Positions 59,092 through 59,171 of a DNA stretch of 64,000 nt are shown here, one piece after another. Both the position numbers and the translations under genes were made by a program. This DNA is from a virus: positions 1 through 64,000 of IMG/VR virus record IMGVR_UViG_3300006028_000011. The stretch is one strand, 5' to 3'. The notes beneath the pieces were generated by a model, which was not told the origin of the DNA, made no database searches, and saw only the letters and a program-made list of their open reading frames with translations. Position 1 is the first letter of the stretch; the number at the start of each line of letters is the position of its first letter.

Positions 59092-59171
59092 GACCGCCGC
59101 CGCTCGGGGCGGGCGAGGAGGGCCGAAGCCCTCCTCGCACCTCCACCGAGCATGGCTGCGGGGGTGAGGTC
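59092..59171 (-). ncRNA. Structured RNA motif, copy 2
   Basis: Same hairpin as 42911-42989 but capped by cUUCGg; lies in a ~1 kb region without a credible ORF. Confidence 0.6.

Follow-up and report, generated by a model that had tools for sequence, protein, structure and literature searches.

Genomic surroundings of the two hairpin copies

The stretch of DNA analysed here (the window) comes from a soil phage and spans the initial 64 kb of a viral record of 82,238 bp that has direct terminal repeats and a G+C content of 72%. On the basis of PHROG matches, the window encodes a major head protein, a portal, a large terminase, an integrase and a TnpB-like effector, and nearly all of its genes are directed leftward. 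Two copies of a short hairpin-forming sequence were located on the minus strand, at 59092-59171 (copy A) and 42911-42989 (copy B), the positions being those first given. A repeat search of the window grouped them as a single repeat family (D8), with 91% identity over 74 nt, the same orientation and a spacing of 16,182 bp. In the whole record, A and B are the only sense copies and there is no third (second copy, E 2.0e-25). The two copies, their parts and the neighboring genes are collected in Table 1.

Table 1. Coordinates of the two hairpin copies, their parts and the surrounding genes
Feature	Position	Strand	Evidence and remarks
XRE-type HTH and TPR-like regulator gene	59566..60825	(-)	Pfam HTH_31 1.8e-08, HTH_3 4.4e-08; PHROG transcriptional regulators; GC3 0.88-0.89
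Tract of ~0.9 kb without convincing coding phase, hairpin-rich, holding copy A	58666..59565	(-)	Frame plot; fold
Copy A, 5' C-rich stretch	59152..59171	(-)	GACCTCACCCCCGCAGCCAT; mostly unpaired (predicted); includes the 13-mer CCCCGCAGCCATG
Copy A, hairpin	59102..59151	(-)	Fold prediction and alignment of copies
Copy A, outer stem	59146-59151 paired with 59102-59107	(-)	Predicted
Copy A, inner bulged region		(-)	TGGAGGT / CCGCC; predicted
Copy A, upper stem	59128-59138 paired with 59113-59123	(-)	Predicted
Copy A, loop	59124-59127	(-)	TTCG, C-G closing pair; sequence and fold
Copy A, 3' flank	59092..59101	(-)	GGCGGCGG then TC; predicted pairing with CCGC and GCC of the 5' stretch
HTH_3 gene upstream of copy B	43729-44004	leftward	Pfam HTH_3
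GerE/LuxR-type HTH gene	43182..43550	(-)	Pfam GerE 5.1e-05, 23.3 bits, below the 23.5 cut-off; codon-phase GC
Small ORF between GerE-type gene and copy B	43003-43185	(-)	Open frame
78-codon ORF	42770..43006	(-)	First ~32 codons are copy B; start ATG overlaps the upstream stop (ATGA)
Copy B, 5' C-rich stretch	42970..42989	(-)	GACCTCGCCCCCGCAGCCAT
Copy B, hairpin	42920..42969	(-)	Fold, alignment, perfect-stem search
Copy B, outer stem	42964-42969 paired with 42920-42925	(-)	Predicted
Copy B, upper stem	42946-42956 paired with 42931-42941	(-)	Predicted
Copy B, loop	42942-42945	(-)	GCAA, G-C closing pair; sequence and fold
Copy B, 3' flank	42911..42919	(-)	GGCGCGG then TC; predicted stem extension

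Copy A is situated 395 nt downstream of the XRE-type regulator gene, in the hairpin-rich tract, where the region 59085-59330 has a fold z of -4.96. Several strong hairpins were predicted on the minus strand of this tract; among them are another UUCG-capped stem near 58915-58945 and a stem of 10 bp immediately upstream of copy A. A sigma-70 scan detected no promoter upstream or downstream of copy A. The first-pass annotation had placed one copy ahead of an operon containing a Cas12, and the TnpB-like effector ORF (54519-56351) is indeed encoded on the strand of copy A, 2.7 kb downstream of it. This minus-strand ORF of 610 aa, carried in a temperate phage genome, matches TnpB-type 'transposase' PHROGs (phrog_506, 2.4e-56), and it adjoins a CRISPR array (53192-54384) made up of 16 copies of a 37-nt repeat, which are separated by spacers of roughly 35 nt.

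Copy B starts 14 nt past the stop codon of the small ORF that precedes it, and it is inside an open frame, not intergenic. The stretch 42770-42930 displays a clear coding phase, and the sole start codons able to feed it are in or upstream of copy B, the likeliest being the ATG at 43004-43006. Because the gene starts upstream of copy B, the copy must be transcribed through at least sometimes, and it is probably translated as a low-complexity N-terminus.

The position of both copies downstream of HTH regulators, also recorded in the first-pass annotation, agrees with the Pfam matches of the genes concerned: HTH_31 and HTH_3 for 59566-60825, GerE (below cut-off) for 43182-43550 and HTH_3 for 43729-44004. 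Two divergent gene pairs, at 43729-44564 and 60825-61245, each consist of a leftward HTH gene opposed to a rightward small gene; they resemble separate switch regions, each of which heads a leftward unit with a copy of the hairpin element.

Sequence and predicted fold of the phage copies

When aligned, copies A and B differ at three places only: six consecutive bases at the apex, which read C-TTCG-G in A and G-GCAA-C in B (minus strand), a single base in the 5' stretch (A versus G), and a one-base indel in the 3' flank. The earlier description of two near-identical copies 16 kb apart, distinguished by an exchange at the apex, was thereby borne out. The enclosing GCTCGG/CCGAGC and GCC/GGC stems are likewise predicted for both copies, together with a CCGC/GCGG extension. 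In copy A, the last G of the 13-mer CCCCGCAGCCATG forms the first base of the stem, and the perfect 10-bp stem was recovered independently by a perfect-stem search.

The predicted fold energies of copies A and B are -58.7 and -58.6 kcal/mol, respectively, for 96 nt (z about -5.2), and none of 200 shuffles folded as low. The plus strand of both copies folds about equally well, so that folding energy alone cannot give the strand. The phage copies possess one feature of an intrinsic terminator, namely a stable G+C-rich hairpin. The T run that would follow the stem is absent in both, the next bases being TCTTCGAGT and TCCCCTCTG, and a terminator scan returned no sites. In the phage as a whole, 11 perfect stems of at least 10 bp were counted, including none with a T run.

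Distribution of the module

A 19-base motif taken from the 5' arm matched 89 metagenome stretches, mostly from soil; the complete element is present in 69 of these, four are either cut by a contig end or variant, and the remaining 16 are unrelated coding matches. The same motif matched 20 contigs of metagenome-assembled genomes (MAGs) or genomes, 13 of them with the element. Six of the element-bearing contigs derive from MAGs of Candidatus Dormiibacterota (the order name being taken from the titles of the MAG contigs) and seven from three MAGs labelled otherwise, one of which (G008) was placed in the same order.

An Rfam search and a covariance model had been proposed in the first-pass annotation. 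At the gathering threshold, Rfam 15 gave no matches in the window, one tRNA in eight loci and none in five loci; scans by E-value yielded chance-level rows only, such as ROSE at 21.4 versus 45 bits. The covariance model (R1) was built from an alignment (A1) of 65 distinct copies and matches 122 of 151 genomes of the order, or 115 of 144 if seven unpublished genomes are left out. Most of the positive genomes contain a single match of about 77 nt, and since the MAGs are incomplete, such module copy numbers are lower bounds. In a class sample, the model matches 41 of 151 genomes, 40 of which are also in the order sample while the remaining one is a 39-nt partial match; in a phylum sample it matches 5 of 151. 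As far as this model detects it, the family is restricted to a single order.

The two phage copies score 94.8 and 87.4 bits with R1, with the hairpin in register, and both are in the seed, so they match by construction. Independent support for their membership is provided by their identity to the 63 bacterial seed sequences. The sequence shared between phage and bacteria amounts to ~80 nt only, and the phage flanks match nothing, including the bodies that precede the module in bacteria. Judged by this identity, the phage copies are members of an RNA family of the Dormiibacterota order. The shared module is the one lead to a host within this bacterial lineage, both for this phage and for a second viral record (see below).

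Neither copy region matched cultured-phage DNA, and scans of viral contigs with the inner-hairpin pattern and with the 19-mer gave no match each. A search of the viral contigs for relatives of the XRE and GerE proteins gave none; only two homologues of the XRE protein were found, both distant. Relatives of the portal occur in three viral records, none with the module. Searches of the literature on the Dormibacterota clade brought up nothing on its RNA motifs.

Selection on the sense-strand RNA

Covariation was analyzed in 96 model-aligned sequences, 94 of them distinct, in an alignment that is fitted to the model and hence favors structure. Stem cells are paired in 99.3% of cases, and 12 of the 19 pairs are changed on both sides, a value as high being reached in none of 500 shuffles. 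Controls with slid partners showed 41-58% pairing. Within the near-identical seed set alone, covariation was seen in 0 of 19 pairs.

The choice of a tetraloop is a property of RNA. An apex of the GNRA, UNCG or CUUG type was found in 78 of the 94 sequences on the sense strand (67, 8 and 3, respectively) versus one of 94 on the antisense strand. Since the tetraloops occur almost exclusively on the sense strand, the family acts as a sense-strand RNA, which corresponds to the minus strand in the phage. Together with the pairs changed on both sides, this distribution upholds the earlier proposal of selection on a minus-strand RNA hairpin, and the GNRA-to-UUCG swap, which had been read as a structural signal, is one instance of a pattern that extends throughout the family. 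The longer apices form an extra helix (L066, L162), with insertions of 26-50 nt. A site for a dimeric DNA-binding protein was considered and excluded, as it would not tolerate such changes in apex spacing.

Directly 5' of the stem, the 13-mer CCCCGCAGCCA(A/T)G is present in all 94 distinct sequences, both phage copies included. In view of this invariance, the sequence itself, beyond the structure, is under selection there. The exact complement of the 13-mer occurs at modules only, and matches with one mismatch are at the level of the control; no target was thus found, which is not evidence either way.

A coding role for the repeat was also evaluated. Apex lengths among the members differ by numbers of bases that are not multiples of 3 (1, 2, 4 or more). 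A six-frame search with the 78-residue product gave 17 matches in 14 of 151 genomes. Sixteen of these lie at module loci and cover residues 2-49 only; the seventeenth (G179:C114), off the module loci, covers residues 3-63 with an E value of 3.3e-4. In-frame stops interrupt 6 of the 17 translated matches. The apex lengths and the in-frame stops indicate that the module is not coding. It is true that an ATG with an ATGA overlap precedes both phage copies and that the same frame is open through both, as would be expected if the copies encoded the same N-terminal peptide for two small proteins. Downstream of copy A, however, the frame lacks coding phase and stops after 52 codons, and most bacterial copies have no upstream ATG, all of which renders a shared peptide extremely improbable.

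The bacterial form of the module

In its common bacterial form, the module consists, from 5' to 3', of the C-rich stretch, the hairpin and a T run. A T run, defined as at least 5 T in the 8 nt directly after the stem, was seen in 37 of the 41 distinct sequences of the short form versus 2 of the 53 of the long form. By these sequence features, the short-form bacterial hairpin is a canonical intrinsic terminator. Ahead of the module, the bacterial loci have non-coding sequence that is partly conserved and spans about 150-250 nt. In five inspected loci (L140, L165, L166, L155 and L157), the upstream gene is divergent and the downstream gene convergent, and the module therefore ends a stand-alone non-coding gene. 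As judged from the alignments, the ancestral role of the family was that of the terminator end of a small RNA.

The stand-alone, single-copy gene that ends in the module and a T run (L165:1225-1576; also L140, L166 and L172-L206) contains in its body a conserved purine-rich stretch of the GGATG-A/G-AGG type. By eye, no more than 4-5 pairs could form between the C-rich stretch and either the 5' arm of the stem or the purine-rich loop in the body of the host RNA. Two known RNAs were rejected as candidates for the host RNA: matches to SRP RNA were found at other loci, as were the best 6S-like matches.

The first-pass annotation had regarded the repeat as an element of the phage's own. The metagenome, MAG and R1 matches identify it instead as a copy of the 3' domain of a small RNA of the host lineage. 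By all indications from these comparisons, the phage has borrowed a piece of the host RNA toolkit and did not invent an element of its own.

High-GC sublineage and a second virus

A high-GC sublineage of the bacteria shares the exact phage sequence; its upper stem is longer, and the T run has been lost (kept in 2 of 53 distinct sequences). The MAGs of this sublineage, although incomplete, carry one to four modules each, behind different promoter-like sequences and bodies. Four locations were distinguished, and further ones exist beyond these. The first, seen at no fewer than 23 loci, is after a structured body of roughly 125 nt and ahead of a Trm112-like gene, and the second after another type of body in the same Trm112-like neighborhood. 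In the third, where a GAF-GerE regulator gene and an ABC ATPase gene form the neighbors, the module follows a promoter-like sequence (TTGACG...TAGACT), and in the fourth it lies about 40 nt upstream of a putative MpaB-like ORF (assigned by eye).

The arrangement in which a GAF plus GerE (LuxR-type) gene directly precedes the module and an ABC transporter ATPase gene follows it is recurrent (L101:3281-4294; L218:2512-3297; and, in class iii, L007, L027, L071, L099, L102 and L112). A GerE-type gene likewise precedes phage copy B. Hexamers resembling a -10 element (TAGGAT, TACACT, CATCAT) were observed 6-8 nt before the start codons of the Trm112-like, ABC ATPase and putative MpaB-like genes (e.g., L018:7560-7600), which suggests leaderless mRNAs with their own putative promoters just downstream of the module.

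A second viral record of 89.8 kb (G301; IMGVR_UViG_3300036826_000588) contains one copy of the module, and a near-consensus promoter (TTGCGT-N17-TATAAT) is located about 230 nt upstream of it. The module forms the last part of an RNA-like region of ~300 nt (L213:1253-1590), in which it is preceded by a 5' hairpin and a 145-nt domain; the latter is closed by a 15-bp helix and followed by CCA. No Rfam or tRNA match was obtained for this region. At the module locus, the two viral genomes have 83 nt in common and no more. Sequence comparison thus indicates that the module has been captured by at least two unrelated viral genomes, and twice in the present phage.

The attachment core of temperate elements is often the 3' end of an RNA gene, and the module is identical to the 3' end of a host RNA gene. 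The copies could accordingly be viewed as a DNA site, either an attachment core in the host small-RNA gene or the attL and attR of a CRISPR-bearing island between 43.0 and 59.1 kb; the phage has an integrase (24843-26519), and its copies are direct repeats 16 kb apart. In addition, on a metagenome contig of 2.5 kb, a module-only copy is located 624 nt downstream of the end of a tyrosine integrase gene (L016:18-1106); this contig is the only hint of a module bordering an integrative element. Several observations argue against a DNA site, which we consider very unlikely. The phage integrase ORF is 16 kb from the nearer copy, and none of the 10 intervening ORFs that were tested is an integrase. 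On one MAG contig (G006:C107), two same-strand copies enclose ordinary chromosomal genes and no integrase. The module of the second virus is the end of a promoter-driven structured RNA, and the strand bias of the tetraloops is itself indicative of RNA.

Proposed role of the phage copies

With somewhat better than even confidence, we interpret the phage modules as terminator-derived 3'-end elements, which carry the conserved sequence of a host small RNA and are placed after regulator genes. The copies would act in the minus-strand transcript. Situated right after the regulator genes that head two leftward units, they would form a very stable 3'-end, pause or terminator structure, and the hairpin would thus separate expression of the regulators from that of the long operons behind them, one of which includes a Cas12-like system. 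Transcripts that end or are cut at the module would carry the C-rich sequence of the host small RNA and could engage the partners of that sequence.

In terms of termination, this reading has to be set against the absence of the T run after both phage stems, its retention in only 2 of 53 long-form copies and its absence from all 11 perfect phage stems of 10 bp or more. Moreover, an efficient terminator at copy B would silence ORF 42770-43006 and the genes behind it; closely coupled ribosomes may possibly melt copy B and allow read-through. In terms of the host small RNA, the points on the opposing side are the lack of a promoter near copy A in the sigma-70 scan and of a target for the 13-mer. 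As to the body of the small-RNA gene, the phage flanks show no similarity to the bacterial bodies; a 10-bp hairpin comes before copy A and coding sequence before copy B.

A mimic or decoy of the small RNA represents a possible, though less probable, alternative. Here, the C-rich stretch would pair with G-rich mRNA sites or bind a host RNA-binding protein, and the hairpin would serve as a stable 3' handle; the phage copies would imitate the host small RNA or sequester its partners, and the host would thereby be reprogrammed. The 13-mer is invariant while the stem covaries, and both phage copies keep the C-rich stretch, which would be needless for a terminator alone. Such a role is also in line with the recurrence of the module in diverse promoter and body contexts, both in bacteria and in a second virus that has its own strong promoter. 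On the other side, no complementary target stands out, and in the phage copies the predicted fold pairs the CCGC and GCC of the C-rich stretch with the 3' flank.

More speculatively, and at a comparably low level of confidence, the ~80-nt unit could be a portable RNA handle recognized by a dedicated host factor or RNA partner, captured by phages in order to join or titrate the pathway. Were this true, it would constitute a modular RNA regulatory system that is shared and contested by host and virus in an uncultured soil lineage; bacteria of the order would attach the handle to several transcripts, and one of the phage copies would gate a Cas12-like CRISPR operon.

Whichever of these roles applies to the phage copies, an observation of two copies in one phage has led to a defined RNA family with a usable model, found mostly once per genome across an uncultured soil order. 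The 3' domain of a host small RNA is reused at several bacterial loci and was captured by two unrelated viruses. Such reuse and capture suggest that a partner worth finding exists for the conserved C-rich sequence and not for the hairpin alone. The case also calls for caution, in that a phage element described as 'structured RNA with compensatory loop changes' may prove to be sequence borrowed from the host.

Comparison with known systems

The first-pass annotation had likened the repeat to the put and nut antitermination elements; the alternative offered there, a protein-binding RNA, is a possible reading. The put RNA of phage HK022 consists of two adjacent stem-loops that act in cis on RNA polymerase, and the nut site of phage lambda of a short boxB hairpin with a specific loop, plus boxA. 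The likeness lies in the presence of two copies per phage (as in putL/putR and nutL/nutR), on the transcribed strand and beside regulator genes, near the head of two long leftward gene runs and after their first regulator genes. By analogy, the RNA would stay with RNA polymerase or recruit a factor and so suppress downstream terminators. Unlike put, however, the module is one long hairpin with an unpaired 5' stretch. Unlike nut, by structure alone, it has a stem of about 20 pairs and a loop that is freely variable among 94 sequences, insertions of tens of nucleotides included, which leaves no specific site for loop recognition. There would also be few candidate terminators to suppress, given that none of the perfect phage stems has a T run. 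The homologues close stand-alone bacterial genes and, in 37 of 41 sequences of the short form, are followed by a T run, so that the homologous hairpin is an intrinsic terminator, the opposite of an antiterminator. The analogy, which has position as the one point in its favor, is not supported, and processive antitermination appears quite unlikely for the phage copies.

In phage T7, RNase III-type hairpins are located between genes. The module resembles them in being an irregular helix, about two turns long, that lies between genes within a single transcript. A processing site or mRNA stabilizer of this type, in which a helix of ~25 bp would be cut or would block exonucleases and so let the regulator mRNA and the downstream operon mRNA differ in stability, would accommodate the long helix with its two bulged bases and one mismatch, the missing T run in the phage copies and the need for copy B to be transcribed through. 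The family nevertheless derives from a terminator, its bacterial homologues being plain terminators, and we regard such a function as unlikely.

The intrinsic terminators of bacterial small RNAs share with the module the G+C-rich hairpin, the stable tetraloop, the position at the end of a stand-alone non-coding gene and, in the short form, the T run. In contrast to a simple terminator, the module is conserved beyond the needs of termination, with an invariant 13-mer and near-invariant stems within sublineages; it is portable between loci and into phages, and the T run is absent in the phage copies and in 51 of 53 long-form sequences.

The trans-acting small RNAs with C-rich unpaired motifs include 6C RNA of Actinobacteria and RsaE/RoxS of Firmicutes. 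Similarly, the module has an unpaired C-rich stretch by a terminator hairpin, belongs to a high-GC lineage of Gram-positive type and is present mostly in one copy per genome. In contrast to these RNAs, it has no Rfam match (6C included) and no target was found, and its C-rich stretch is in a linker, not in a hairpin loop.

Finally, DicF and the anti-sRNA AgvB of EHEC prophages are phage or prophage RNAs that copy or counteract host small RNAs. The present case is similar, in that a mobile element bears an RNA sequence related to a core host regulator. It is distinguished from these precedents by the extent and placement of what was taken: here the 3' domain alone was copied, twice, inside operons, and one of the copies overlaps an ORF.
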